This document shows, piece by piece, positions 9,695-25,071 of a stretch of 27,384 nt of DNA. Under the pieces are notes generated by a model. It worked only from the letters and a program-made list of their open reading frames with translations. It was not told the origin of the DNA and ran no database searches. The position numbers were made by a program, and so were the translations under genes. The stretch covers positions 1 through 27,384 of the forward strand of contig JALTLO010000015.1 of assembly GCA_027001995.1 (NCBI GenBank). Reading direction: 5' to 3'. The DNA comes from Planctomycetota bacterium. GTDB taxonomy: Bacteria > Planctomycetota > GCA-002687715 > DRQF01. Positions within the stretch are counted from its first letter, which is position 1, and each line of letters starts with the position of its first letter.

Positions 9695-9955
9695 GAGTCC
9701 AACCATTTCTTTTGCTCCACCCTCCAATAGGGCAAACGCCTACCAGGAAAGGCAATTTTCCCGGGTAGATTGAGAAGCAATTCCCATCTTTTTTGACTTT
9801 CCCTGTAATTCCTTGAAAGACAATCTATAAGACGGCGGCTGCGTTCAGTGCCGGGAGGTTGCCAATCAGAAGTTGAAGGTAAACGGTCAATCTCCCGCCG
9901 AGTTCCGCAGTGGAACAAAGAACGGATTTTGGTCTCTGTGGTTGGGGAATCACAC

Positions 9956-11527
9956 ATGAGCGTATTCGTCACTTTGATGACGGGGTTGATCATATCGATC
10001 AGCTCCGGCAGCGGTGGGACTATTGATAATCCAATTCCGCGTTTCAGCGACGGTGGACAGGTCAAACTGGCCTCCTTTGACCTTCCAAACGGTGAAGGCC
10101 TAGTTCTCTTCAATCCCAGTGATAGCTATCACGATGATCCTGGTGGCACGTTCAACTTTCGTAAAATCGAAACAACAACGAACGCTGTGCCCTACCATGG
10201 TTCTATCATGGGGGCCACGAATCTCATTCTGATTCCGGATGACCCAACCCACTACCGGACCTCATCACTCTACCCATTCACGTCTCATGTCCTCCTGGGG
10301 GGCGAGATGCTCGTGATCTACAAGAATTCTGCGGCACTCAACAAGCCCTCAGCAGCAAAGATTGCCGCTGTAAAGAATATCATCCACCAAACGAGCGCCT
10401 TGGGGCAAATTCAGTCGAATCCCCGCCTCAAACACTTCATCAAGATTCTTGCTGATTCCGGTTCTCCGGCGAATGCACCTCAAGGTGAAGACTGGGATAT
10501 GGGCTGGACTCTTCGCAATTGGGTTCAAACCGCTGGCGGAGCCCCGCGGAAAGGTTGGTTCAATTCGCTCTGCCCCCGTGGCAGCGGCGGTTTAGACAAC
10601 TGGCATTACAACCGCCTCCTCTATTTGGCCCTCAACTTCATCGAGAATCCCACCAATGAGAATTGGGAATTTGGACTCAGACAAGCCATAGCTCACGCGA
10701 CTTTAGGTCGTGAGTGGACAGGGCTTCGTAAGGGCATGGCCAAGTACGAAAAGGGTGATGTTTTCTTGGGCGACCAACAACCCGGGGATTGGGCCAAACA
10801 GTGGTCGCCTGGTTTGGTCGTCTGGGCCTTACTATCAGACAATTACATCCTCAACAAAGCCATCGCAACCACGAAGCAAATGCATATGAATGTCAACCCA
10901 ATCTTGGTTTGGCAAGGCTATTGGGGGGCCCGCTTGGCTGCTCGATACTTAGAAGAGCTCCTGATCTATTACTTGATCTCCGGCGATCCAGTCCTCCTGG
11001 GAAAAGCCCAGACCATGATCACTCATATCGAGAATCTCATCGGTCCTCAGGGCTGGTGGCCCAACTTGGGAAATGGCGGTGCGGCAGAGGAGTCACCCTG
11101 GATGCAAGCCCAGCTCGTCACCGCTATCTATCGCTGGTATGAACGAATTCCATCCTTGGAAGCGGCCACAGGGTTCACCCGCACCGAGCTGGACAACGTG
11201 GGTGCTGCTATTATGCAAGATGGTTCTGAGCTGAGGAATGGCAAGCGTGCATTGCGCTATCGCATGGGGACCACGATTGTCCCCGCGCCCTCCATGCACT
11301 TAACCTCCTTCGCGGTCCCTATGCTCCGCTATATGTCGGCCCACAATCCTCAGTACAAGCCTCTACGAAATGAAGTGACCAACTTCGTCATGGACTGGGC
11401 CGGATCCCAGTTCTCGGACATCCCCACGGGGAGTCCTCCACCCCTGCCAACCATTGGTTATCGCTTCCCCCCCCAAGGCTTCGGTTGGTCGAAGTCCATG
11501 CTCTTTTATCTGGAAGCCCTTCGTTAA
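9956..11527 (+). CDS. hypothetical secreted or membrane-anchored protein, Trp-rich, possibly an alpha/alpha-toroid enzyme-like fold
   Basis: The track ORF starts at a GTG at 9848. The ATG at 9956 gives MSVFVTLMTGLIISISSGSGG, a hydrophobic signal or anchor. The body is rich in W, Y and G motifs (GWWPNLGNGG, WEFGLRQA, VWQGYWGARLAARYLEEL). I recognise no defined family. Confidence 0.65.
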   Translation: MSVFVTLMTGLIISISSGSGGTIDNPIPRFSDGGQVKLASFDLPNGEGLVLFNPSDSYHDDPGGTFNFRKIETTTNAVPYHGSIMGATNLILIPDDPTHYRTSSLYPFTSHVLLGGEMLVIYKNSAALNKPSAAKIAAVKNIIHQTSALGQIQSNPRLKHFIKILADSGSPANAPQGEDWDMGWTLRNWVQTAGGAPRKGWFNSLCPRGSGGLDNWHYNRLLYLALNFIENPTNENWEFGLRQAIAHATLGREWTGLRKGMAKYEKGDVFLGDQQPGDWAKQWSPGLVVWALLSDNYILNKAIATTKQMHMNVNPILVWQGYWGARLAARYLEELLIYYLISGDPVLLGKAQTMITHIENLIGPQGWWPNLGNGGAAEESPWMQAQLVTAIYRWYERIPSLEAATGFTRTELDNVGAAIMQDGSELRNGKRALRYRMGTTIVPAPSMHLTSFAVPMLRYMSAHNPQYKPLRNEVTNFVMDWAGSQFSDIPTGSPPPLPTIGYRFPPQGFGWSKSMLFYLEALR

Positions 11528-11650: not shown

Positions 11651-13183
11651 ATGCTTCTCAATCGTTCTTGCGCCATTCTACTTATCCTCCTTCTATCCAA
11701 CTCCATCCAAGCTCAAGATTGGGTCCGCTTGCAAAACGGCAAGAGGATCAAAGGTGAAATCATCGTCCAAAATGAATTCTCCATCGAGATTATTGACGAA
11801 CTGGGTGAGCGCTATGAGATTCAAATCGAGGAGTACAAAAAGCTTAAGAAAGGCAAGAAACTCGCCAAGGTTTGGCGTAAGAAACTGGCCGAGTTGAATA
11901 AAGACGATAGCGACGCCATTTTTCTTGTAGCACGGGAGGCCTTTCAAAATAAGAAGACCCGCAAAGACGGAAAACGCCTTCTTCGGCGGGTCCTTTCTGT
12001 GGACGAAAACCACCCCGAGGCCCGCAAGCTCTTGGGGCATTTCAAAGTTGGAGACACTTGGTATCTCAACAAGAAAAAAGCTCAGAAATCCTTGGATGCT
12101 CACTTCGCCGCATTGGGGTTTGTACGCCACGAAAAAGGCTGGATCGATCCTGAAAAACTCGAAGATCTCAAGTCAAACATTAAGAACTGGATGATCGTCG
12201 AAGGTCAATGGCGCAACCGTGACATCGTCATGAAAGAACGGGGCTACATGAAGTTCCGCCAAGAATGGATCGCCCCTGATCTTGCTGGTTACGCCCAGCA
12301 CGCCACTCAGATCGAAGACAAAGGGGGAATCCAACTGGAGGGATCCCAAGTGGGTACCGTCGTTGTTCTCCACTGCGAAGGCAAAGAAAGAGCAGAGGCA
12401 CTGGCCACTGCCCTCTACAAAGCCCGCCTTTGGTTCGCCAAGACAATGAAAGATTCAGCCAGCGCCAAGTCGCCTCTCCAAGTAGAGATCGTGGTAAACC
12501 TCCGATCGCAGATGCATCAGATCATTGAACGATGTGGCGTTTTCTATGGCTTAGTCATTCCCCGAGAAATGCGCCGCACTTTCTCGGGCCTTTCTCACAG
12601 TAACTTTCTTGGAGGTGTCCATTCATTGGAAGCCAACATCCCAGGCGGGTTGCCCCCTGGCGCCATGCAACCACCAGGGGACTTTGCTGATCAAGGCTTG
12701 TCCCATGGTATGGTCAATGCCGCCACATCAAGGAAAGCCTACAAATTGTGGAAGAACACACGGAGCCGATTACCCTACTTCATCAGCAACGCCATGGGAG
12801 TTCATGGAGAGATCGCCGCCTTCGGAACGACCATTGTTCTCGTTTCTGTGGAAGACAGGGACTATGGCCGCAGCAACGAAAATGAATTCCATGGGAGTCG
12901 CGGTCTCAACCTCGAACAGATCAAAGAGGGCCTCAAGAAAACCTTACAAACTCGTACCATGAGCCTGCGCTCTCTCTTCTTTATGACGGGGAGTCAAATG
13001 GATCAAGAAATGGGACTATTCGGAGTCGTCTTTCTCGATTTCTTGTTGCAAGAGCAACATGAGATTTTCCTCAAGTTCTTGGCCGATGATGATACGAGCA
13101 TGACTCTCGACAAACGGTTCAAGAAGCACTTTGGAGTTGAATTCGAAAAAATGGACAAGACTTTCCGCACTTGGCTCAACTAG
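11651..13183 (+). CDS. hypothetical secreted protein with a Lys-rich N-terminal region
   Basis: It has a signal peptide, MLLNRSCAILLILLLSNSIQA|QD, and a GAGGA RBS 8 nt upstream. It is 510 aa with a highly charged, K-rich N-terminal third. I recognise no family. Confidence 0.7.
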   Translation: MLLNRSCAILLILLLSNSIQAQDWVRLQNGKRIKGEIIVQNEFSIEIIDELGERYEIQIEEYKKLKKGKKLAKVWRKKLAELNKDDSDAIFLVAREAFQNKKTRKDGKRLLRRVLSVDENHPEARKLLGHFKVGDTWYLNKKKAQKSLDAHFAALGFVRHEKGWIDPEKLEDLKSNIKNWMIVEGQWRNRDIVMKERGYMKFRQEWIAPDLAGYAQHATQIEDKGGIQLEGSQVGTVVVLHCEGKERAEALATALYKARLWFAKTMKDSASAKSPLQVEIVVNLRSQMHQIIERCGVFYGLVIPREMRRTFSGLSHSNFLGGVHSLEANIPGGLPPGAMQPPGDFADQGLSHGMVNAATSRKAYKLWKNTRSRLPYFISNAMGVHGEIAAFGTTIVLVSVEDRDYGRSNENEFHGSRGLNLEQIKEGLKKTLQTRTMSLRSLFFMTGSQMDQEMGLFGVVFLDFLLQEQHEIFLKFLADDDTSMTLDKRFKKHFGVEFEKMDKTFRTWLN

Positions 13184-13343: not shown

Positions 13344-13682
13344 ATGTCTAAATCATCGAAAATCGTGAGTGGTCTCGGAATGCTATTGCTTGTTTGTCTC
13401 TTAGGCGCCGCAGTAAATTCTAAGACAAGTCTTCAAACCGAGACTAAGACAACGAGCCCCCTGGAGAAATTTGGTGTGAGCGTAGGCTCGCGCATTGTCA
13501 TTATTGATGACATGAGGCTTGCGGGATACCCAACAGATTCCCAATACCAAATAAGAGAGATCGATGGATGGCATGTTCTTTGCCACCAATCTAGCAAGAG
13601 AAAAGTCGCGGGTGTGAATCGTTTCGTCTTCAATTTGAACGAGATGTCATTCCAAATCGTGCGCCAGACAAAAGCCAAATAA
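13344..13682 (+). CDS. small secreted protein or lipoprotein, function unknown
   Basis: It is 112 aa with an N-terminal hydrophobic segment, GLGMLLLVCLLGAA (possible lipobox LLVC), and a GGAG RBS. A terminator follows. Confidence 0.55.
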   Translation: MSKSSKIVSGLGMLLLVCLLGAAVNSKTSLQTETKTTSPLEKFGVSVGSRIVIIDDMRLAGYPTDSQYQIREIDGWHVLCHQSSKRKVAGVNRFVFNLNEMSFQIVRQTKAK

Positions 13683-13709
13683 GTTCGAACATTTGATTCG
13701 AAACATCTG

Positions 13710-13750
13710 AATCTCAGACGGTCTCAAACCCGGCCTGAGATTCTTTTTTT
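13710..13750 (+). terminator. intrinsic terminator after the 112-aa gene
   Basis: aatctcag ... ctgagatt forms an 8-bp stem with a long loop and is immediately followed by cttttttt at 13743-13750. Confidence 0.55.
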
Positions 13751-13848: not shown

Positions 13849-14011
13849 TATTGAGAGATTTCCCGATTTGGCGGTCAACTCCCAGAAAAAATCCCCCTAT
13901 CTTTGCACAATAGATGGCAATTGCCTTCGAAGTGATATCGACAGAATTCCTAGGATCGAAGAAGATAGGGATTCCCCAACAATTCATTCCTCGAGTTAGA
14001 AGGAAAAACTC

Positions 14012-15628
14012 ATGGATTATCAACCTCCTCAGCCACCCAATACGCCACCGCGTCGGCGCGCTCAGAGGCCGAGCCAAAGGCCACCCATCACGATCAAACA
14101 ACTCAAAGGTCCGCTAACCGTCGCATCGGTTTTCATCCTCATGGCATCAGCATGGTTCTTCTACTCCAATTGCCGCATTGATGTCCCCAGTCGACACATC
14201 GCCATCTTGATTAAGAAAACCGGCAAAGACCTGACGAACGACATGGAGATCGCACCTTCAGAAGAATACAAAGGGGTGCAAAAGATCAAACTGAGCGAAG
14301 GCCGCCATTTCTACAACCCATTTGTGTGGGATTGGGAAATCGTTCCCATGATCGAAGTCGCTGCCAACAAGCTTGGAGTCAAGGTTCGAAAGACCGGTGA
14401 CGATTTGGGTTATGGTGAAATCATCGCTTGGCAGGAAAACCAAAAAGGCATCGTACCCGATGTTCTGCGACCGGGCCGCTACCCCATCAACTCCTACGCT
14501 GAAACTGTCGAATTCCATGATCCCGTTTCAGTCCCTGCTGGTTTCAAAGGTGTTGTCACCCTCTTGGCAGCACCGATCCCTGAAGACCCGAACGTCCTCA
14601 TGGTGAAACCAGGTTTCCGCGGCGTTCAAAAAGAAACACTCGACGCCGGTCGTTACTACATTAACCCCTATGTCAAGCGCATCGATTTGGTCGACTGCCG
14701 CAGCCAAAGATTCAACTTGGCAAAAAACAAAGACATGGGATTCCCTTCAAAAGATGGCTTCTGGGTGAGTTTGGATGGGATCATTGAATTTCGCGTGAAA
14801 CCCGAACGGGCATCAGAAGTTTTTGTGACTTACAACGATGTCAGCAACGACGACGCCATCAAAGAAGAGATCATCTCAAAGATCATCCTGCCAAACGCCC
14901 GTAGCTTTTGTCGCATCCAAGGTTCCAACAAATCTGGTAGAGATTTCATCAGCGGTGACACCAGAATCCAATTCCAGAAAGATTTTCAGGATGCCATGCG
15001 GATGGAATGTGAACCATTGGGCATTGAGATCATTCAAGCCCTCATCACCCAAATCAATCCGCCCCAAGCGATTGCTGGTCCGGTCCGAAATCGAGAAGTC
15101 GCAAGACAAAAACTCAATCAATATAACCAGCAGATTCGTCAGCAAGCTTCAGAAATGAACTTAGCCGTAGAGCAAGAGCTGGTTAAGCGGGGCCAAGCAC
15201 TTGTGCGGGCCGATCAAGCCGTTGTCACCATGACTGTTCAAGCTCGAAGAATGCAAGAAGTTGCCATCACAAAGGCCAACGAGAATCTCTCTGTGGCTGG
15301 CTATAAACTCGATGCAGCGAAGGACGAGGCTGCTGCCACCATCGCTCGGGGTAAGGCCAAGGCTGACGTTCTACGTTTTGACAACGAAGCAGAGGCAGCT
15401 GGTTGGTCCGAAGCCGTTCAAGCTTTTGGCGGCAACGGCGATGAATATGCCCGCTACATTCTCTTTCAAGCCTTAGCGCCGGGATATCACAAGATTATGG
15501 CCAATACAGCCAATAGTCCCCTGATGGACATTTTCGGTAGTTTCAAGAAAGAGAATTCCCCCTTCCCCACCCCCATCAAATCGGCAAGAAAAGTAGTCCC
15601 TGCAAGTTCAGAGGAGGAAGGAAAATGA
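14012..15628 (+). CDS. flotillin-like SPFH/band-7 membrane protein, paralog A
   Basis: A Pro/Arg-rich N-terminus is followed by a TM helix (VASVFILMASAWFFY). Three N-terminal beta-module repeats each end in G(R/.)(H/Y)(F/Y).(N/C)P(F/Y/I) (GRHFYNPF, GRYPINSY, GRYYINPY). The SPFH core reads DGFWVSLDGIIEFRV ... GIEIIQALITQINPPQAIAGPV. A coiled-coil with a flotillin-type Ala/Glu-rich tract, AAKDEAAATIARGKAKADVLRFDNEAEAAG, follows. A strong RBS, gaaggaaaaactcATG, precedes the start. Confidence 0.9.
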   Translation: MDYQPPQPPNTPPRRRAQRPSQRPPITIKQLKGPLTVASVFILMASAWFFYSNCRIDVPSRHIAILIKKTGKDLTNDMEIAPSEEYKGVQKIKLSEGRHFYNPFVWDWEIVPMIEVAANKLGVKVRKTGDDLGYGEIIAWQENQKGIVPDVLRPGRYPINSYAETVEFHDPVSVPAGFKGVVTLLAAPIPEDPNVLMVKPGFRGVQKETLDAGRYYINPYVKRIDLVDCRSQRFNLAKNKDMGFPSKDGFWVSLDGIIEFRVKPERASEVFVTYNDVSNDDAIKEEIISKIILPNARSFCRIQGSNKSGRDFISGDTRIQFQKDFQDAMRMECEPLGIEIIQALITQINPPQAIAGPVRNREVARQKLNQYNQQIRQQASEMNLAVEQELVKRGQALVRADQAVVTMTVQARRMQEVAITKANENLSVAGYKLDAAKDEAAATIARGKAKADVLRFDNEAEAAGWSEAVQAFGGNGDEYARYILFQALAPGYHKIMANTANSPLMDIFGSFKKENSPFPTPIKSARKVVPASSEEEGK

Positions 15629-17214
15629 AAATCAACAAAACAGTAATCCCCCTTGTTCTTCTTGGGGCCGTCGGCTTTGTCCTTACTTTTCACTGGACGA
15701 TCAACCGCACCTACGTCGAGCGTGGCCAAAGTCTCATGTTGCGCTACAAAGGGCCACTTCTCTTCGGCAAGAGACAGACCGCCCGTGTGGGCCATTACGC
15801 CGAGGAAGGAGAAATTGGAGTTTTGAGGGAACTGCGAGGGCCGGGGCGTCATTTCTATTGTCCCATTTGGTGGGAAGTGAAAATCGTAGACGACATCGTC
15901 ATACGCCCTGGAGAAGTGGCAGTCGTTCGTTCTTCCTTGGGAGAAGACCTACCCAAAGGCCAATACCTTGTCGACGGCGACTTGGGTGAAACTCAATTCA
16001 AGGGTGTCATGAGAACCGTTTTTGGACCAGGTCGATACCGCGTCAATCCCTATGCCTACGAGTTTAACATTGTTCAACGAGCGACCAAGAGACTGGGTGG
16101 TCAAATCAAATACAGTGGATGGGTCGAGATCCCCACGGGATACGTAGGTGTCGTCACCAACCTGGCAGACAATTTGATCACCGGTGCCAAAAAAGGCATT
16201 CAAGATAAGGTCTTGCCTCCTGGTATTTACCCCATCAATGGTAAAGAGCAAGAAGTTGACATCATTGAGATCGGTTTCCGAGAAGCAACTGTTGGGGTTG
16301 AAAAGAAAAGAAGTCGAGACGGCTCGTTGATTCTCGACAAAAGTGGAGAGCCCCAAATCAAGGACACCAGCAAGGGGATCCACTTCCCATCCAACGATGG
16401 TTTCCAGATTCACATGGATTTCACCGCTATCTGGGGCATCATGCCAAGCGCAGCACCCAAAATCATCAAGACATTCGGAAACATCCAGGCTGTGGAAGAC
16501 AAAGTTGTTCTGCCGCAGATTGAAAGCATTTGTCGTAACAATGGATCGAGGTATTCAGCCGTGGAACTCTTGGTTGGTGAAGACCGGCAAAAGTTCCAAG
16601 CACAAACGACAGACGCTTTTCGAACGGTCTTGAACCTCAAAGATATCTCTCTTCAATACGGTTTGGTGCGACACATCTACATTCCAGTCCAAGTTCGCGA
16701 ACCGATCCAGAACGCTTTTATCGCTGATGAACTTAAGCTCACTCGGGACCAAGAACAACTAACGGCGAAAGTTGAAGGAAAGCTCAGGGAAGCCGAAAAG
16801 AAAGTAGAATTGGAGTCAGAGAAAGTTCGCGCCGAAACGGACAAGGAAGTCGCCGAGGCCATGGCCAAAGGGGCAAAGGTCGTGGGCGAAACTGCGGCGG
16901 AAACCGAAAAACTCGTGGCCAAAATTGACCGCCAAGTAGCAGAATTAGAGGCTCAAGCCACAGTTGTTCGGGGCCATGCGGGAGCTGAGTCCGAGAAACT
17001 GCAGCAGCAGGCCAAGGCGAGCAAGTTCACTTTGGCGGTGAAGGCGTTTGGTTCTGGTTCGGCCTACACACGTTGGGTTTTTGCATCCGGGTTGCCTGAA
17101 GATATTACGCTTCAACTACTCTATGCTGGAGAAGGCACTCTATGGACCGATCTCAAGGGCTTCACGGAGACTATGTTAGGAAAGCAAATGACAGAGAAGC
17201 GTCGCCGACCTTAG
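15625..17214 (+). CDS. flotillin-like SPFH/band-7 membrane protein, paralog B, translationally coupled to paralog A
   Basis: The ATGA overlap with the upstream stop (15625-15628) and a GAGGAGGAAGG RBS indicate coupling. It has the same architecture: a TM helix (IPLVLLGAVGFVLTF), GPGRHFYCPIWWEVKIV, GPGRYRVNPY and PPGIYPING modules, an SPFH core, and a long E/K/A-rich coiled-coil, EKVRAETDKEVAEAMAKGAKVVGETAAETEKLVAKIDRQVAELEAQA. Confidence 0.9.
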   Translation: MKINKTVIPLVLLGAVGFVLTFHWTINRTYVERGQSLMLRYKGPLLFGKRQTARVGHYAEEGEIGVLRELRGPGRHFYCPIWWEVKIVDDIVIRPGEVAVVRSSLGEDLPKGQYLVDGDLGETQFKGVMRTVFGPGRYRVNPYAYEFNIVQRATKRLGGQIKYSGWVEIPTGYVGVVTNLADNLITGAKKGIQDKVLPPGIYPINGKEQEVDIIEIGFREATVGVEKKRSRDGSLILDKSGEPQIKDTSKGIHFPSNDGFQIHMDFTAIWGIMPSAAPKIIKTFGNIQAVEDKVVLPQIESICRNNGSRYSAVELLVGEDRQKFQAQTTDAFRTVLNLKDISLQYGLVRHIYIPVQVREPIQNAFIADELKLTRDQEQLTAKVEGKLREAEKKVELESEKVRAETDKEVAEAMAKGAKVVGETAAETEKLVAKIDRQVAELEAQATVVRGHAGAESEKLQQQAKASKFTLAVKAFGSGSAYTRWVFASGLPEDITLQLLYAGEGTLWTDLKGFTETMLGKQMTEKRRRP

Positions 17215-17389: not shown

Positions 17390-18574
17390 CTAAAGGAGAG
17401 CACTGGCACTCGCTTCTGCCTGCACCACGTCCACATCATGACCCAATACACAAAGAGCATCTCCGATGGCACGGACGGTCTTAATCAGATCATCTGGGCG
17501 ATGAAGCACATTCCCCATGTGGCCCACACGAAAGTATTCGCTTCTGCACATCGGATGAAGTCCCCCAGCAACAACGACCCCATTTTTGGCAACTTCCCCC
17601 ATCAGGCGACCGTCAATTCTTTGAGGGAACTTGATAGCACTGAGGAGGTTCGAAGTGCATCCCTCATCCTTCGGGAGCAGCGTCAAACCCATGGTTGACC
17701 AAGCTGCACGCATGGCCTTGGCTGACCTTTCATGGAGTTCAAAAACGCCTTCCATTTGACTTCCGTCTGCCAAGAGAGCACATAGAGAAACGTCCAGAGC
17801 AGCGACCAAACTCGTAGCAGGAGTTGCGAAGTAGCTGGGTTTCCCCTCCTCGTATGCCTTCATGATTGGCAACCAAGTATGCCAATCCAAGGACATGGGA
17901 GGGCTATGCTTAAGAGCATTCCGGGCTTCCAAGGCCCTTGCGCTCGCCACCAGAAGAGCCAGGCCAGGTGGCAAACCGATCGCTTTTTGAGAAGCGGTCA
18001 AATAGACATCTGCCCCCCAAGCCGCCATTTTGAAACGCTCACCAGCAGTGGCGCAGACACCATCAAAAACACTCAAGACACCATGGTCTTGGGCCAGTTG
18101 ACAAAGCCCTTTGGCATCAACGCGCACACCCGTTGAAGTATCAACGTGAGTGGCGGCCAAAACTTTGAAAGTTTGAGCAGCGAGAACGTCAGCGACTTTT
18201 TTCAACTCAGGAGCGTCGAAATACCCCTGACTCCCGTCGGCCCCAGGCACTTCGACGACATGGGCCCCTCGACGCCGGAACATCTCGGCGAAGCGATCCG
18301 AGAAGTATCCTGTGTTAACAACCAACACAGCTTCCCCTGGTTCCACCAAATTGAACACGGTCATGTCCATCGCCGTGGTTCCTGAGCCCGCAACGATAAA
18401 AGGTTGGCTGTCCTGCCCTGCTAACCAAACGGCCCGCATGCAATCGAGAGACCGTCCCATGGCTTGAATAAAATCAGGGGCTACGTGGCTTGCGGGGTGC
18501 TTCGCAGCCGCCGCCACCACGGCCCGTGATACTTCGATCGGACCAGGGATCATCAACAAGGGACGATTCGACAT
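17390..18574 (-). CDS. class V (AGXT/SGAT-family) PLP-dependent aminotransferase
   Basis: LLMIPGPIEVSRAV is the class V N-terminal motif. TASQKAIGLPPGL carries the PLP-Lys in an SQK context like alanine-glyoxylate / serine-pyruvate aminotransferases. The track start at 18586 is a GTG. The ATG at 18574 (MSNRPLLMIPGP) is preferred but uncertain. Confidence 0.85.
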   Translation of the reverse strand: MSNRPLLMIPGPIEVSRAVVAAAAKHPASHVAPDFIQAMGRSLDCMRAVWLAGQDSQPFIVAGSGTTAMDMTVFNLVEPGEAVLVVNTGYFSDRFAEMFRRRGAHVVEVPGADGSQGYFDAPELKKVADVLAAQTFKVLAATHVDTSTGVRVDAKGLCQLAQDHGVLSVFDGVCATAGERFKMAAWGADVYLTASQKAIGLPPGLALLVASARALEARNALKHSPPMSLDWHTWLPIMKAYEEGKPSYFATPATSLVAALDVSLCALLADGSQMEGVFELHERSAKAMRAAWSTMGLTLLPKDEGCTSNLLSAIKFPQRIDGRLMGEVAKNGVVVAGGLHPMCRSEYFRVGHMGNVLHRPDDLIKTVRAIGDALCVLGHDVDVVQAEASASALL

Positions 18575-18685
18575 GACATATCTCACAGTTTCTTGACTTC
18601 AGGGTCAGATCCTACTATTTGACCCACGGCGAACAACTTTCAATCCATGAATTGACCGACGGCCAAAATATGACTCCACTGCACC

Positions 18686-20728
18686 TTACGCCTCTTCCAA
18701 TGCCGCTCTCAACTTGTGGATCGAGCGAACAAGTTCTGAAAACAGCGATCCAGTCAAGGCTTGCTCCTTGTCACAAAGAGCCATGCTGGGGTCGGGATGG
18801 ACTTCAACAATAATGCCATCAGCCCCCACCGCTGCAGCAGCCAGGGCCAAGGGTGTCACTAAGTCCCGGCGCCCAGCAGCATGGGAAGGGTCAACAATAA
18901 CAGGCAAGTGAGTCCTTGACCGTAATACGGGTATGGCCGAGACGTCCAAAGTATTGCGCGTGGCGGTTTCGAAGGTACGAATGCCTCGTTCACACAAGAC
19001 AACCTGATTATTGCCACCTGCCATGATATATTCCGCTGCGTCCAAGAGGTCGCCAACTGTGGCACTCATCCCTCTTTTTAGCAGGACCGGTCGGTGGCAT
19101 TGCCCCAGTTCTTTCAATAGTTCAAAGTTCTGCATGTTGCGGGCACCAACTTGAAGCATAGAAGCACTGGCAGCGACCCGTTCAACAGCATCTGGGGTGA
19201 GCACCTCAGTCACCACGGGAAGATCCATTTGATCTCCGGCTTCACGCAAGAAATCTAGGCCCGCGTACCCCAAACCCTGGAAGGAATAGACGCTTGATCG
19301 CGGCTTGAATGCGCCGCCCCGAAGAATCGCAGCTCCTCTCTCCTTTACTAAGCTCGCCGCAGCAAAGATCTGCTCCCGGCTCTCTACTGCACAGGGACCA
19401 GCGATAAAAGTGAAACCACCCCCACCGATGGTCACATCCCCTACGGTGACGGTTGAACGCTCACCATCGCCGCGGCCTTTGGCCAATGGCGGGCCAGGTA
19501 ATGTCTCACCCATCTCGATTCTATGGGACTCATCCCTATCTCTGCCTTTGTCCTTCAACACCACCGGAATAGATGGGACGTCCCTAGTCCGGGAAGGATA
19601 GGACCCCAAGATTCGAAACTGATTGCAATGGGGACGTGCGGCAGCGATGGCATCAGCGACGCGGCTGTCGTTTTGATGGCCTTCAACATCAACTAAAAAC
19701 ACGTATTCCCAGGGTGAATCAGGCTCGGGACGACTCTCGATGCGGCAAAGATTGACTTCAGACTTGGCGAAACAACTCAAAGCACGAAAAAGAGCCCCAG
19801 GCCGATGAGCCGCATGAAGAATCAAACTCGTCTTACTTGGTAAAGAGGCGTCAGACGTTTCCTGGGTGGTCGCCAGGAGAACGAACCGGGTCATATTATT
19901 GCGCGAATCGGAGAGCTCATCTTGAAGGATCTTAAGACCATAGAACTCAGCAGCTTCTGGTGGACAAAGAACCCCCACTCCAGACTCTTGCGTCTTGGCT
20001 AATTCGGCGGCGGCCCCCGCCGTGTCCGAACGAGGTTGTGCCACAACCCCACTCAAACCATGGAGAAACCGCGTACTCTGAGCCAAGGCCGCCGGATGAG
20101 AGCGCACCTCTTTGATGTCGCTCAGGCGACTATGGGGCAAAGACGCCAAGACATGCTCAACCTGCCAAGTCTCTTCGCCAACGATACAAACTCGCCGTTG
20201 AGTCAAGATTCTATTGACTTCGGGGATTCCACCTATGACCGTGTTCTCTACGGGAAGAAACCCATAGTCGATGGAGCCATGTTCCAAGGAATGAACCACA
20301 GCATCAAAACTCTCATGAGCTACCGTTTCAAATGGGCATGCTCGGACGTCGAACATTTTTCTCGCCCCAAGGTCGCTGTTGCAGAAGGAGGCTCCCTGGA
20401 ATCCAACACGGACAATGGATGGCTCGATACATTGCTTTTCTCTTGACGTAGCGGCTTCCTGGCTGCGTCTGGAGTATTGCAATATCTCCCGCAGGACCCG
20501 GCCCACAAAATGGGAAGAGAGTCCTGCTGCATCGGCTTCCCCACGCCAAGATTCCAACAAACGTGCTTCTCGCGAGGGGTCCCAAATCGGTGAGCCGTCC
20601 TCCGCTTTTATCTCGCCAACTCGCCGGACAGCGTCCATCCTCTTGGCCAACAATTGGACAAAGGAACGATCAAGCTCTTCGATATCAGCTCTGATTTCCT
20701 TCAATCTTGATTTTGGACTTTCGGTCAT
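18686..20728 (-). CDS. trifunctional fusion: chorismate mutase (AroQ) - prephenate dehydratase with ACT domain (PheA) - DAHP synthase (class I-beta / KDO8PS-like core)
   Basis: The N-terminus, [34 protein letters not shown], is an AroQ chorismate mutase helix. The middle, [14 protein letters not shown]...[13 protein letters not shown]...TRFVLLA...[35 protein letters not shown], is the PDT catalytic domain plus the ACT regulatory domain. The C-terminal ~265 aa, [21 protein letters not shown]...[18 protein letters not shown]...[15 protein letters not shown]...[12 protein letters not shown], is a DAHP/KDO8P synthase I-beta core. A GAGGA RBS precedes the start. Confidence 0.9.
18689..19471 (-). 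other. DAHP synthase I-beta catalytic core, about aa 420-680
   Basis: [22 protein letters not shown] and [10 protein letters not shown] motifs. It has no separate N-terminal ferredoxin-like regulatory domain; the CM/PDT/ACT region occupies that position. Confidence 0.6.
19559..20431 (-). other. prephenate dehydratase catalytic plus ACT domain, about aa 100-390
   Basis: PDT blocks and ACT-like C-terminal segment ([32 protein letters not shown] ... VFLVDVEGH). Limits are approximate. Confidence 0.6.
20444..20728 (-). other. chorismate mutase (AroQ) domain of the trifunctional protein, about aa 1-95
   Basis: Helical CM_2-type sequence, [51 protein letters not shown]. Limits are approximate. 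Confidence 0.6.
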
Positions 20729-20970: not shown

Positions 20971-22131
20971 CTATTTTCCTGCCATAAATGACTGGAGCCG
21001 CCCCATAGCTTCCTGGAGGCGTTCGTCTGCAAGGCCGCAAGATAGGCGCAAGAACCCAGGAGTACCGAAGGCCGAACCCGGAACAACCTTCAAACCCTCT
21101 TTCTGCAACAAGACAGAAGCGAGAGCACGATCATCAACGACGTCGTTCTGCTCCAACCACCCTTGAACTTGAGGAAAGACATAAAACGCGGCTTCTGGTT
21201 TTCTCAATTCGACACCACCTACCTGGCATAAGGCTTCCCCCACCAATTCCGCACGCCTGCCATAACGACGGCGTTGCTCAAGGACCCACGATTGATCCAT
21301 GCTCAATGCGCAAAGGCCAGCATATTGGGCGGGCATACATGGGTGTGTCGTCGTGGCTTGGGCAAGTTTGGCGAGGGAGTCGATCAACTTCGAAGGCCCC
21401 ACCGCGCAACCAAGGCGAATCCCCGTCATCGAATATGACTTAGAAAAGCTCTCAATGATGATGGTCTGTTCTTTAATTTCTGGAGCAACTTGCAGAAGCC
21501 GTGGAATCTCATCTGCAAATGCCAGCCCGACATAAACCTGATCTGACAAGACCCAAAGGTCATTCTCTTGAGCCAACTGAGCCAAAGCCGTCAAAATCGA
21601 CTCCGGATAAACCAAGCTGGTGGGATTGGAGGGACTATTGATGATGATCGCCTTGGTCCTGGCACTAAAGAGCGAATTGAGAACCTCCAAATTGGGCAAG
21701 AGGTCATCATCAGCCGGGCACACCACCGCTTTCGCCCCACACCACTCCACTTGTTGAATAAATGTAGGCCAATAGGGAGCAAAGACGATCACTTCATCCC
21801 CCGGACTCAATAGACTTCTCAAGGTGTCCATCAAAGCGGGTTTCCCCCCCGCTGTTACTATGACGTTCTCAGAAGAAAAGGAGACTCCGTTTTGCTCCCC
21901 CACAACCTGTGCCAAACTTTCTCGAAGCTGGGGTATCCCCTGAGCCGGCCCATAGCGCAGATGACCGTCCTCAATGGCTTGAGAAAACGCCTTCAGAATG
22001 GGCGCAGCGGGTAATTCCTCGGGTTCACCAACCGCCAAATTGATGGGGTCAGGATGGTCCGTCGCTGCTGCCGCTGCCCCCATGGTGGCAGAAGCAGGAA
22101 TCGACAGAGATAATGCATTCAATTCTGGCAT
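20971..22131 (-). CDS. class I/II PLP aminotransferase (aspartate / aromatic-amino-acid aminotransferase family)
   Basis: SFSKSYSMTGIRLG is the fold-type I aminotransferase Lys motif, as in AspB/TyrB/HisC relatives. The protein is ~386 aa. The track start at 22134 is a TTG; the ATG at 22131 with a GAGGGG RBS is preferred. Confidence 0.85.
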   Translation of the reverse strand: MPELNALSLSIPASATMGAAAAATDHPDPINLAVGEPEELPAAPILKAFSQAIEDGHLRYGPAQGIPQLRESLAQVVGEQNGVSFSSENVIVTAGGKPALMDTLRSLLSPGDEVIVFAPYWPTFIQQVEWCGAKAVVCPADDDLLPNLEVLNSLFSARTKAIIINSPSNPTSLVYPESILTALAQLAQENDLWVLSDQVYVGLAFADEIPRLLQVAPEIKEQTIIIESFSKSYSMTGIRLGCAVGPSKLIDSLAKLAQATTTHPCMPAQYAGLCALSMDQSWVLEQRRRYGRRAELVGEALCQVGGVELRKPEAAFYVFPQVQGWLEQNDVVDDRALASVLLQKEGLKVVPGSAFGTPGFLRLSCGLADERLQEAMGRLQSFMAGK

Positions 22132-22257
22132 CAAAAGCCCCTCAAGAAATTCAAAATGCCCAAGAACGATTGAGCTAATCGAAACTCAGGGACATAGTAT
22201 AAGAAGAAGTCCAAAGTTGGTGAATACTTTGAAATCAGGAAACGGTCTCAGTCAACT

Positions 22258-23310
22258 ATGAGTTCATGGAAATTTGAAACCAGCAGCTCCACCAATTGTT
22301 GCATCTTGGTCACCCCTGGCCAAGCCAGGAACCTCACTGCGGTTTTAGCCCCACAAGACTATGACGGCGTTTTCTTGGTCCATGATGTTGCGATGAGAGA
22401 AATCGCCACAGAAATCGACGATCAACTGAACTGCAGCCTGGTTCATGAGTTGGTTCCCGGGGAGTCAGAAAAGACCTTGGTCACGGTGGGCGAAGTCGCT
22501 GCTCTACTCTTGGCCGCTGGAGCAACTCGCAAATCTCTCATCATCGGCTTAGGAGGCGGCGTCACCTGCGATCTGGTGGCCTTCTTGGCCTCTATCTACC
22601 AACGTGGAATTGCTTGTGCTCTCCTTCCCACCACCATGTTGGCCATGGTAGATGCCTCCGTGGGAGGAAAAAACGGTGTCGACCTCGGTGTCGTCAAAAA
22701 CATGCTCGGCACCATTCGCCAACCCCACCTCATCGTTATTGACCCGAATTTCATCGAGACTTTGCCCGATGAGGAGCTCCGCGATGGGCTGGTCGAAGTG
22801 ATCAAAAAAGCAGCCATCTTGGACAGGAAGATATTTGCTCAGCTCCGAAAATCCGTGGAGGACCTTCGAAACCGAGCCCCAAAGGCCCTCGAATTCACCA
22901 TCAAAGCTGCCATCGAAATGAAATTGGCCGTTGTTCAGAAGGACGAGAGAGAAAGTGGTGTCAGAAAACTGCTCAACTTTGGTCATACGGTTGGCCATGC
23001 CATCGAGTCTCTGTCGGCGTTTTCGATCAGCCACGGTGCCGCTGTCGCCTTGGGTATGAGAATCGAACTTCTCATGGGGCCCACCCCTTTGCCTGCCCTC
23101 CTCCGCTTGCTCAAAGATCTCCATGTGAATCTCGATCTGCCAAGCCAACTCCTGGATCCGGTTGCGCTTTGGAAGGTGATGCTCAAAGACAAGAAGAACC
23201 AGAACAACCAAGTCCACATGGCCGTACCAACCGCTCTTGGATCTGGAGCCCTTCTGTCAATCGAAGAAAACGACTTGGCTCGGGCTGTTAGCGACCTCAA
23301 GGGAGAAACG
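22258..23310 (+). other. 3-dehydroquinate synthase domain (approximate limits)
   Basis: DHQS glycine-rich NAD-binding motif and the metal-binding His blocks (FGHTVGHAIE). Confidence 0.6.
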
Positions 23311-25071
23311 AAGGTATTACGCCCGCTCCTGGGCCCCTTCGACTTAAGCCTCAAACTCCCAGGATCCAAATCTGTTGCCAACCGAGCCATTGTTTTGGCC
23401 GCTCTTTCGATGAGACAAACTCGTATCAGAAACGCCACACCCTGTGAAGATGTCCTGGCATTGGTGAATGGCTTGAGAGCCCTCGGCTTCGATGTGCAAT
23501 GGGTGGACAAGGAATCCGGTTGTTTGGTGATTCAAGGAGGAATTCCCCAAAGTCTTTCTCAGCCAGATCCTGTCACCATCAACTGCGGAAACGCCGGCAC
23601 TGCCCTCAGATTCCTCACGTCGATAGCAGCGTTAGTCCCCGGTCAATGGATCTTGACGGGCAACAAGCACATGCAGAAACGGCCAATCAAACCGCTGGTT
23701 GATGCCTGGGAAAAATTGGGAATCCAAATGTCAGCTCCCAGCGGATGCCCCCCCATCACCATCACCGGCGGTAGGCCAGTAAGCAATCAAGTGGCACTCG
23801 ACGCCAGCATCAGCAGTCAGTTTCTTTCTTCACTCCTCTTAGTAGCTTCCCAAGTCGAAGATGGTCTTCAAATTACTTTGAACAAAGAGCCATCATCCAA
23901 TTCTTACGTCGACATTACCAAGAAGGTCATGGCGCAATTCGGCCAAGAAGTGAACGATCAAGGATTGAAGTTTCATGTGGTCGACTCGCGCCCCAAGCAC
24001 AACTTGGAATTCGAGGTGGAAGGTTGCTGGAGTTCCGCCGGTTTCTTTTTCGCTTTAGCCGACCTCGTTGAGGGTCGCTTTAGGGGGGAGAATCTTAGTG
24101 ACGATTCCCCTCAAGGCGATCGCCTTGTGCCAAGTGTGATCGAGTCGATGAAAACGACCGACCCAATGACCCTCGATGTTTCTCAGATGCCCGATCAATT
24201 GATGAACTTAGCCGTACTGGCGGCAAGAAGATCGGCTCCCACTCATTTCATCGGCGCGAAGAATCTCCGTTTCAAAGAATGTGATCGACTTGCAATCACT
24301 TGTCGCGAACTCAAACGCGCGGGCATCGACGCTCAAGAACACGAAGACGGGATCGATGTCTTAGGCATCATCGACTCCCCCAAGACAATCTGCTTCCACC
24401 CAGAAGACGACCATCGTTTGGCTATGGCATTCACCGCCATAGGCCTGATGCGTTCAGGCTGCACCATGAAACAACCCCACTGCGTCGCTAAGAGTTTCCC
24501 TCGATTCTTCGACATCATCGACGACATCTTTGCTGTCCGCCGCCCCTTGGTTCTTATCGGAATGCCGGCCTCCGGCAAATCAACTTTGGCCGCAAGACTC
24601 AGTACGACTTTAACCCTCCCATGGCAAGACAGTGATGACGTCTTCAAAGATCGACACGGCGATATTTGCACCTTCGTCCTATCTCATGGCTGGAATCGTT
24701 TCCGCGCCTTAGAACAAGAGATATGCCAAGAGCTTCTGGAAACAGAAGGCATCATCGCATTGGGAGGAGGCGCTTTGGAGTGCCCACAGACCGCCCTTCT
24801 CTGCCGAGAGAAAGCCTTCGTCATTTGGCTCAACGAAGACCTCAGAACAATTCGCAATCGTTTGGAACAGCCCAGCAATACCCGTCCGCCGCTCACATCC
24901 AAGAGCCCAGCGGATGAGATTCAGTTCTTGGACCAAAAACGAAGACCCGTGTTCGAAAAAGTGAATCACCTCAAGGTCCCAGGAGGTTTGTCGTCAATAG
25001 ACCAAGAAAAACACGTTCTCCTGATGCTTGAGAAGAGATTCCAATGGCCTCGGACCTCAGCCGCCAAATGA
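22258..25071 (+). CDS. trifunctional fusion: 3-dehydroquinate synthase (AroB) - EPSP synthase (AroA) - shikimate kinase (AroK), in the same domain order as the first three domains of eukaryotic AROM
   Basis: aa ~1-350 is DHQS-like: GLGGGVTCDLVAFLA, DASVGGKNG, NFGHTVGHAIE. aa ~352-760 is EPSPS-like: LKLPGSKSVANRAIVLAAL near its N-terminus, NCGNAGTALRFL, and HRLAMAFTAIGL near its C-terminus. aa ~761-937 is shikimate kinase-like: LVLIGMPASGKSTLA Walker A, then LGGGA. Confidence 0.9.
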   Translation: MSSWKFETSSSTNCCILVTPGQARNLTAVLAPQDYDGVFLVHDVAMREIATEIDDQLNCSLVHELVPGESEKTLVTVGEVAALLLAAGATRKSLIIGLGGGVTCDLVAFLASIYQRGIACALLPTTMLAMVDASVGGKNGVDLGVVKNMLGTIRQPHLIVIDPNFIETLPDEELRDGLVEVIKKAAILDRKIFAQLRKSVEDLRNRAPKALEFTIKAAIEMKLAVVQKDERESGVRKLLNFGHTVGHAIESLSAFSISHGAAVALGMRIELLMGPTPLPALLRLLKDLHVNLDLPSQLLDPVALWKVMLKDKKNQNNQVHMAVPTALGSGALLSIEENDLARAVSDLKGETKVLRPLLGPFDLSLKLPGSKSVANRAIVLAALSMRQTRIRNATPCEDVLALVNGLRALGFDVQWVDKESGCLVIQGGIPQSLSQPDPVTINCGNAGTALRFLTSIAALVPGQWILTGNKHMQKRPIKPLVDAWEKLGIQMSAPSGCPPITITGGRPVSNQVALDASISSQFLSSLLLVASQVEDGLQITLNKEPSSNSYVDITKKVMAQFGQEVNDQGLKFHVVDSRPKHNLEFEVEGCWSSAGFFFALADLVEGRFRGENLSDDSPQGDRLVPSVIESMKTTDPMTLDVSQMPDQLMNLAVLAARRSAPTHFIGAKNLRFKECDRLAITCRELKRAGIDAQEHEDGIDVLGIIDSPKTICFHPEDDHRLAMAFTAIGLMRSGCTMKQPHCVAKSFPRFFDIIDDIFAVRRPLVLIGMPASGKSTLAARLSTTLTLPWQDSDDVFKDRHGDICTFVLSHGWNRFRALEQEICQELLETEGIIALGGGALECPQTALLCREKAFVIWLNEDLRTIRNRLEQPSNTRPPLTSKSPADEIQFLDQKRRPVFEKVNHLKVPGGLSSIDQEKHVLLMLEKRFQWPRTSAAK
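23311..24540 (+). other. EPSP synthase (3-phosphoshikimate 1-carboxyvinyltransferase) domain (approximate limits)
   Basis: LPGSKS.ANR motif plus C-terminal DHRLAMAF-type block. Confidence 0.6.
24541..25068 (+). other. shikimate kinase domain (approximate limits)
   Basis: GMPASGKST P-loop about 15 aa after the EPSPS C-terminal block. The ~175-aa size fits AroK. Confidence 0.6.

Follow-up and report, generated by a model that had tools for sequence, protein, structure and literature searches.

A conserved planctomycete pair of SPFH proteins with three tandem SPFH1-like modules and a predicted fold resembling vault repeats

Introduction

What kind of SPFH system is encoded by two overlapping, paralogous band-7 genes of a planctomycete? 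The question is raised by a stretch of 27,384 nt (referred to below as the window) from Planctomycetota bacterium GCA_027001995.1 (contig JALTLO010000015.1, positions 1-27,384, forward strand), in which genes A and B encode two membrane proteins of ~530 amino acids (aa). An earlier note, made from the sequence without database searches, had described them as flotillin-like paralogs with a triplicated N-terminal module. The default role of the SPFH superfamily is the caging of membrane proteins, possibly proteases, and it has been recognised only recently that the SPFH cages (HflK/C, prohibitin, erlin, flotillin and stomatin) and the vault belong to a single structural family. The architecture described here is well supported: a membrane anchor, three consecutive SPFH1-like modules, an SPFH2 core and a long helical region, encoded by a gene pair that is kept in Planctomycetota. 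We consider it probable, if well short of certain, that A and B build a hetero-oligomeric cage of the HflK/C kind, which would face the periplasm and have a wall raised in the manner of the vault.

The three-fold module

The six motifs quoted in the earlier note as the ends of the modules are all present; they lie at residues 97, 155 and 213 of A, at a spacing of 58 residues, and at residues 74, 136 and 200 of B. A BLASTP comparison of the two proteins gave an out-of-register high-scoring segment pair (A126-235 against B50-158, E 4e-5), which is the signature of an internal repeat. Self-comparison of A and of B by BLASTP returned only the diagonal; the modules are too diverged for this method (inter-module identity 17-38 %), and profile-profile comparison was needed. 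Modules, SPFH core and coiled coil were therefore cut from alignments of 26 orthologs per paralog and the pieces were compared by using hhalign.

Within A, the probabilities were 98.2 % for modules 1 and 2 (P 5e-14), 96.1 % for modules 1 and 3, and 96.8 % for modules 2 and 3 (P values from 5e-14 to 3e-9), and modules 2 and 3 of B matched each other with 95.7 %. All controls, in which a module was compared with the core or with the coiled coil, remained below 3 %, and the two cores matched each other with 99.2 %. Three consecutive modules of ~58 aa, normally single in SPFH proteins, are thus borne out, strongly for all three modules of A and for modules 2 and 3 of B, and less strongly for module 1 of B. 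Module 3 corresponds to SPFH1, the N-terminal portion of Band_7 (A 201-233 aligns to profile positions 6-44), and no Pfam model covers modules 1 and 2 when these are scanned in isolation. Their homology to module 3 makes modules 1 and 2 extra copies of SPFH1.

Across the paralogs, position-matched modules are mutual best partners (A module 2 with B module 2, 98.6 %, P 8e-16; A module 3 with B module 3, 98.2 %, P 5e-14), from which it follows that the triplication is older than the duplication that gave rise to A and B. The statement that the triplication makes these proteins ~530 aa long holds in part: the two extra modules add ~116 aa and explain only a portion of the length.

Family assignment

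A Pfam scan of A and B gave Band_7 (PF01145) well above the gathering cutoff of 23.6 bits in both proteins (A, residues 202-378, 97.1 bits; B, residues 168-382, 67.9 bits), which places both in the SPFH/Band 7 superfamily. In keeping with this superfamily, the SPFH alpha/beta fold is followed by a long helix, and membrane association is predicted to occur through an element N-terminal to the SPFH domain. Band_7 was the only Pfam family found; no match to Flot (PF15975) was obtained at E up to 1. No NCBIfam model matches either protein: hflC (TIGR01932) reached 10.3 bits against a cutoff of 134.4, and hflK (TIGR01933) was not listed. PDB sequences were searched with phmmer and hmmsearch by using A, B, both family profiles, and the three-module and single-module profiles. 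Only marginal matches to prohibitin, QmcA and HflC were obtained, and none to MVP, the major vault protein; the best match among solved SPFH proteins was prohibitin, with a marginal E of 0.004, and the match to HflC was confined to the coiled coil of B (E 0.05). A match of the single-module profile to designed PPR proteins, caused by a 'KGIVPDV' stretch, was discarded as spurious. The proposal of a distinct SPFH subfamily is supported by the absence of an NCBIfam match and by the distance to the best solved relative.

The flotillin label, by contrast, did not hold. If A and B were flotillin-like scaffold paralogs of the FloT/YqiK type, their length of ~530 aa and the long Ala/Glu/Lys-rich helix after the SPFH domain would be accounted for, and some JGI relatives with more modules are indeed labelled 'YqiK'. 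However, the Flot family is missing from both proteins, the pair is not accompanied by NfeD, which the 2009 SPFH classification names as the partner of prokaryotic flotillins (PMC2636767), and the added length consists partly of two beta-modules and not only of a flotillin-type helix. Of the domain layout given in the earlier note, the N-terminal transmembrane helix, the SPFH core and the long helical region of each protein therefore stand, while the flotillin-type nature of the helix does not, and a flotillin-like identity is very unlikely.

Predicted structure and likeness to vault repeats

AlphaFold2 modelling covered A (137-sequence alignment) and the three-module fragment of A; B is represented by its sequence. 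The model of A has an overall predicted local distance difference test (pLDDT) score of 83.5, and more than 90 for residues 30-350. It comprises a transmembrane helix (residues 28-54), three consecutive five-stranded beta-domains (pLDDT >90), an alpha/beta core (residues 232-349) and, in the C-terminal half, one long helix (residues 352-471) followed by a short helical C-terminal part. A low-confidence kink in the long helix (residues 401-405, pLDDT <50) may mark the boundary between the coiled-coil segments CC1 and CC2. When the fragment of residues 52-234 was modelled alone, pLDDT was 92.2 and the predicted template modelling score (pTM) was 0.79, which indicates a confident inter-domain arrangement.

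In a Foldseek search, MVP entries occupied ranks 1-13 over ~185 aligned columns (E 0.02-0.17, TM-score 0.43-0.49), followed by canonical SPFH proteins over ~75 columns, the length of one module. As in MVP, tandem small beta-domains are stacked linearly before an SPFH-fold domain in the model of A; the stacked modules are thus predicted to resemble the repeat domains of MVP, a point that the earlier note had missed. Related points are on record: repeats R1-R9 of MVP are homologous to SPFH1 and the MVP shoulder corresponds to SPFH2 (PMC12915596), a band-7 protein of Herpetosiphon 'folds as MVP' (PMC3762200), and Asgard homologs of MVP have five repeats (PMC12962969).

One reading of this likeness would be that A and B are bacterial MVP homologs that build a closed, soluble, vault-like particle. 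Their domain order is that of MVP (tandem repeats, SPFH-like shoulder, long helix), and in fold the repeat region matches MVP best. On the other hand, a conserved N-terminal transmembrane helix sits where the halves of the vault dimerise, there are three repeats and not nine, and true bacterial MVP homologs are reported, from Myxococcales, Cytophagales and Oscillatoriales, to be more than 50 % identical to eukaryotic MVP (bioRxiv 10.1101/872010). Neither A and B nor their isolated modules match Pfam Vault or MVP_shoulder, and no MVP chain was found among the hidden Markov model (HMM) matches of the three-module and single-module profiles in the PDB at E up to 10. We give this reading hardly any credence.

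A conserved two-gene operon

Both open reading frames (ORFs) of the earlier note and their overlap in ATGA were recovered exactly, and the products are paralogous (BLASTP, 27 % identity over 434 aa, E 9e-37). The overlap, of the B start with the A stop, spans 15625-15628, and a GAGGAGG run lies 8-14 nt upstream. A terminator shared by A and B, as had been claimed, was not detectable: the 175 nt downstream of B, beyond which a convergent gene follows, gave no intrinsic terminator (folding z-score -0.58, no U-run). Upstream of the pair there is a good one instead, which consists of a 9-bp GC-containing hairpin (GAAUCUCAG...CUGAGAUUC) and a U7 run after it and has a folding z-score of -2.29.

For a survey of the pair, one genome per species was scanned (219 relatives) and 80 loci were kept, almost all of them labelled Planctomycetota. 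Of 83 loci, 80 have the order A then B on the same strand; contig ends truncate the remaining three, so that every one of the 80 informative loci keeps the pair. Homologs number more than 1500 for each paralog (~55-85 % identity) and come from Planctomycetaceae, Pirellulales, Phycisphaerae and similar groups; where they have a name, it goes no further than 'SPFH domain-containing', 'band 7' or 'HflC-like'. The overlap itself does not extend to the family. The gaps between A and B in other genomes range, approximately, from small overlaps up to ~450 nt, most orthologous pairs being ~0-450 nt apart, so that ATGA coupling is a local feature.

Flanking genes vary between genomes, and after clustering of all flanking ORFs no family was present in more than 7 of 77 loci. 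The earlier observation that no NfeD-family or FtsH gene is adjacent was confirmed, as neither occurs in the window and neither is a conserved neighbour in the 77 loci; hflX is likewise absent from the window and from conserved positions nearby. A and B form a self-contained two-gene operon kept in Planctomycetota.

Some contigs of metagenome-assembled genomes bear the label 'Candidatus Kuenenia' or 'uncultured Chitinophaga' although their A-B pair is of the typical planctomycete kind (loci L018, L021, L070, L026 and L062); in the case of Chitinophaga, an error of binning or taxonomy seems to be behind the label.

Topology and assembly

Each paralog has a hydrophobic 19-mer near its N-terminus that 26 of its 26 orthologs retain (mean Kyte-Doolittle value 2.2-2.3). 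The net charge in A is +3 on the N-terminal side of the transmembrane helix and +0.65 in the 15 residues after it, and the family means for B are +2.9 and +0.5. This charge bias suggests an N-in orientation with the bulk of the protein in the periplasm, as for HflK/C. The conserved C-termini differ between the paralogs (ADSPLMxIF in A, LLYAGEGTLWTDL in B), and D238, G241 and E242 of the insertion that is specific to B ('...D..GEP' motif) are invariant in 26 orthologs.

On this reading, A and B would be paralogs within the SPFH superfamily that each cross the membrane once, with the N-terminus inside, and the analogy with HflK/C, PHB1/2, erlin1/2 and flotillin1/2 makes it most likely that they alternate in a large ring. 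Strict pairing, fixed gene order and differentiated C-termini, together with the alternating C-terminal conformations that are published as the rule for heteromeric SPFH cages (PMC12624060), argue for such alternation. The ring would close into a domed cage at the periplasmic side of the cytoplasmic membrane, around a patch of membrane together with client proteins. The two extra SPFH1 domains of each subunit would stack end to end, like the repeats of the MVP barrel, and give a taller wall, lengthened between the membrane and the SPFH2 ring. The strict conservation of the pair fits the earlier suggestion, drawn from the coupled genes, of an obligate hetero-oligomer as in HflK/C.

Two further readings bear on the assembly. 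Firstly, A and B could be the planctomycete HflK and HflC, diverged orthologs that cage and regulate FtsH, in which case the extra modules would be a lineage-specific decoration. The adjacent paralog pair, the single N-terminal transmembrane helix with the bulk predicted outside, and the JGI annotation of homologs as 'regulator of protease activity HflC' agree with this, and Table 1 of the 2009 classification (PMC2636767) records no SPFH3 (HflK/C) in three planctomycete genomes surveyed, which makes a functional substitute plausible. The family models and solved structures point elsewhere: hflC reaches 10 bits where the cutoff is 134, hflK does not appear, and prohibitin (E 0.004) precedes HflC, which reaches only the coiled coil of B (E 0.05). 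Moreover, ftsH and hflX are neither in the window nor conserved near the pair, although an association in trans would be compatible with this. Orthology with HflK/HflC is, on these grounds, unlikely.

Secondly, A and B could form separate homo-oligomeric rings with independent roles, as stomatin and QmcA do, and be co-transcribed only as a result of tandem duplication. Homo-oligomeric SPFH cages of these two proteins exist (PMC12624060), and A and B are just 27 % identical. Against this stand the A-then-B order and co-occurrence in all 80 informative loci from deeply diverged planctomycetes, the conservation of each paralog among its own orthologs (~55-85 %), the differentiation of the C-termini, as in known heteromeric cages, and translational coupling in this genome; we regard separate rings as rather improbable.

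Several observations weigh against the heteromeric, vault-walled cage that we prefer. Module 1 of B is degenerate, with hhalign probabilities of 84 % to module 1 of A and 42 % to module 2 of B, and B as a whole is represented by its sequence. The vault likeness is one of fold and architecture, at Foldseek E values of just 0.02-0.17, and is accompanied neither by Pfam Vault or MVP_shoulder matches nor by HMM-level matches to MVP in the PDB. The topology rests on the positive-inside rule, and the B protein of the window is ambiguous in this respect (net charge +3 against +2). The pair has no linked gene for a client, protease or other partner, and any client or protease-regulating role is putative. 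Stoichiometry, hetero- as opposed to homo-assembly and cage height are all inferred.

An estimate of subunit number from the published regression on CC1 length (y = 0.1782x + 10.22) was rejected as too uncertain; it gave ~19 subunits if CC1 ends at the kink at residues 401-405, and ~32 if the whole 120-residue helix is used. Cysteines C229 (14696-14698, in DCRSQRF) and C300 (14909-14911) are invariant in A orthologs, and C79 and C303 of B are nearly so; if the proteins are periplasmic, these residues might form disulfides.

Relatives with more modules

The three-module profile was searched against 1.84 billion representative proteins, and modules were counted with the single-module HMM. The search yielded 1187 matches at E up to 0.001, 162 of them at E up to 1e-30, with E values down to 1e-85. 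Three was the commonest module count (95 of the best 150, many of which are fragments); other relatives have 4, 5, 6, 7, 8, 9, 10, 12 or 15 modules. This range of 3 to 15 modules among relatives in other phyla had been missed in the earlier note. A strongly hydrophobic segment close to the N-terminus is present in most of the proteins that have extra modules, and Band_7 directly follows the last module in eight of the nine Pfam-scanned proteins with 5-15 modules. Lentisphaerota contributed one three-module representative.

SPFH proteins of Geomonas (~830 aa, seven modules; WP_246014735.1 and WP_224962355.1) belong to a cluster of 192 members (P0276) from Geomonas and relatives. In a locus of this type (L084, 6001-8514) a single gene is followed by genes for a 1042-aa TPR protein and a Peptidase_C14 protein. 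Giant cyanobacterial relatives of 1.6-1.8 kaa carry 10-15 modules: P0241 (L085, 8001-13382), P0260 and P0280, the last being NET58509.1 of Symploca, a 1802-aa 'VWA domain-containing protein'. According to Pfam, P0241 and P0260 combine Band_7 with a C-terminal vWA domain, and the locus of P0241 contains vWA, Peptidase_C14, HTH_VMAP-M9, PP2C and kinase genes. In the two many-module loci examined, the SPFH proteins are thus encoded by single genes that adjoin Peptidase_C14, TPR, vWA and VMAP-type genes; 'Band7-like' scaffolding domains have been described in such conflict-system contexts (vWA/VMAP) by Kaur et al. 2020 (PMC7159879). The multi-module relatives share with A and B the module itself, mostly the N-terminal hydrophobic segment, and Band_7 after the last module; they differ in having more modules, in being encoded by single genes in the two loci, and in the vWA domain that some of them carry.

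It is tempting, though on balance doubtful, to place the A/B pair and its relatives with 4-15 modules in one widespread bacterial class of membrane-anchored SPFH cages, so far undescribed, in which the number of SPFH1 domains sets the height of the wall. The vault would then be the detached, closed extreme of the class, the domains of MVP would have arisen from duplications of bacterial SPFH1, and the three-repeat heteromers would build tall cages in planctomycetes. If this were true, the eukaryotic and archaeal vault, with nine SPFH1-like repeats and no anchor, would stand at the end of a bacterial series, and the three-repeat heteromeric cages of planctomycetes would be tall structures within an unusually large periplasm. 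The graded series of 3 to 15 repeats makes both the origin of the vault barrel and a tuning of cage height by repeat number testable.

Features of the locus and neighbouring genes

Features of the A/B operon (window positions; residues are those of the respective protein)
Feature	Position	Strand	Residues	Remarks
Intrinsic terminator of upstream small ORF (13344-13682)	13709-13750	+		5' boundary of SPFH operon
Shine-Dalgarno-like AAGGA	14000-14004	+		7 nt before ATG of A; read from sequence
Gene A	14012-15628	+	538 aa	ORF; Band_7 E 1.7e-27; 1780 homologs; transmembrane anchor, three SPFH1-like modules, SPFH2 core, long helix, C-terminal tail
A transmembrane helix	14108-14164	+	33-51	Arg/Lys-rich N-terminal tail before it; model helix 28-54
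A module 1	14171-14350	+	54-113	ends ...GRHFYNPF...; five strands, E55-58 to E106-112
A module 2	14351-14524	+	114-171	...GRYPINSY...; five strands
A module 3	14525-14698	+	172-229	...GRYYINPY...; canonical SPFH1; Band_7 match from residue 202 (profile position 7)
A SPFH2 alpha/beta core	14699-15064	+	230-351	invariant DCRSQRF and MGFPSKDGF motifs
A long helix (CC1/CC2 equivalent)	15065-15424	+	352-471	DSSP helix; Ala 21 %, Gln 11 %
A C-terminal region	15425-15625	+	472-538	helix 476-496, conserved ADSPLMxIF, disordered tail
Coupling junction	15611-15628	+		GAGGAGG Shine-Dalgarno-like run (15611-15617) within end of A, then ATGA
Gene B	15625-17214	+	529 aa	ORF; Band_7 E 1.5e-18; 1593 homologs; architecture as in A
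B transmembrane helix	15646-15702	+	8-26	
B module 1	15706-15894	+	28-90	degenerate; ...GRHFYCPI...; single-module HMM recovers 60-89
B module 2	15895-16080	+	91-152	...GRYRVNPY...
B module 3	16114-16272	+	164-216	...GIYPINGK...; Band_7 from residue 168
B-specific insertion	16273-16374	+	~217-250	~34 aa between module 3 and SPFH2 core; gap in A (BLASTP)
B SPFH2 core	16375-16707	+	251-361	Band_7
B coiled-coil region	16708-17034	+	362-470	Ala 17 %, Glu 17 %, Lys 13 %; aligns with A helix
B C-terminal region	17035-17211	+		conserved LLYAGEGTLWTDL motif; invariant columns Y500 to D509; no counterpart in A

Upstream of the operon lie three ORFs on the same strand (9848-11527, 11651-13183 and 13344-13682; 559, 510 and 112 aa) that neither Pfam nor PADLOC matches; hydrophobic segments resembling signal peptides open the proteins of 510 and 112 aa. 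No defence-system model of PADLOC was matched. Downstream of B, the window contains an aromatic amino-acid cluster of unusual fusions: a 680-aa fusion of chorismate mutase, prephenate dehydratase, ACT and DAHP synthase (18686-20728, minus strand) and a 937-aa fusion of dehydroquinate synthase, EPSP synthase and shikimate kinase (22258-25071, plus strand), the latter a partial AROM-like fusion, with flanking aminotransferase genes at 17390-18586 and 20971-22134 (both minus strand). In the window and in 'Planctomycetes bacterium syqfu' (L001, 1-621), but not in locus L002, the SPFH pair has a gene for DAHP synthase within ~10 kb; this proximity is probably residual synteny of related genomes and not a functional link.

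Comparison with known systems

A and B depart from HflK/C, from flotillin and from MVP in at least one tested defining feature each. With HflK/HflC they share adjacent paralogous genes, a single N-terminal transmembrane helix, a bulk that is predicted to be periplasmic, and the order SPFH1, SPFH2, coiled coil and differentiated C-termini; they differ in having three SPFH1-like domains in place of one and in lacking linkage to ftsH or hflX. As the most conserved SPFH pair in a phylum seemingly without HflK/C, they are a candidate for membrane-protein quality control there. Prohibitin PHB1/PHB2 is likewise a heteromeric pair and has a '...RGVQ..GTH..iP...DCRS' stretch in common with A and B, across module 3 and the core, but it is eukaryotic and mitochondrial, ~270-300 aa long and equipped with one SPFH1, and the E value of the match is marginal.

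Among the subgroups of the 2009 classification (Hinderhofer et al. 2009, PMC2636767), SPFH11a/b is described as always adjacent in one operon and as found in one planctomycete; the adjacency of two subgroup members in one operon recalls A and B in their 80 loci. SPFH11b is said to lack a coiled coil, whereas B has a coiled-coil-type region, which argues against membership, as far as a comparison by description can tell. Rhodopirellula baltica has SPFH11a/b (NP_867633/NP_867632) and a second adjacent, unclassified pair in the 'same operon' (NP_868533/NP_868534), and either pair could correspond to A and B, whose placement in the SPFH1-12 scheme is by description only. Internal repeats are not mentioned in the passages of that classification that were consulted.

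MVP shares with A and B the tandem beta-domains of ~55-60 aa, followed by an SPFH-fold domain and a long helix; A and B differ in their transmembrane anchor, in having three repeats and not nine, in being two paralogous subunits, in their bacterial origin and in the lack of detectable sequence similarity. The homology of MVP repeats to SPFH1, the Herpetosiphon band-7 protein and the five-repeat Asgard MVP are already in print; in the open-access full-text literature, neither paired SPFH proteins with a membrane anchor and three repeats nor the series of repeat numbers were found to have been described. With a transmembrane anchor, a heteromeric gene pair and a short vault-like stack of repeats, A and B would be an intermediate, and they look like an undescribed bacterial form between the ordinary SPFH membrane cages and the vault.

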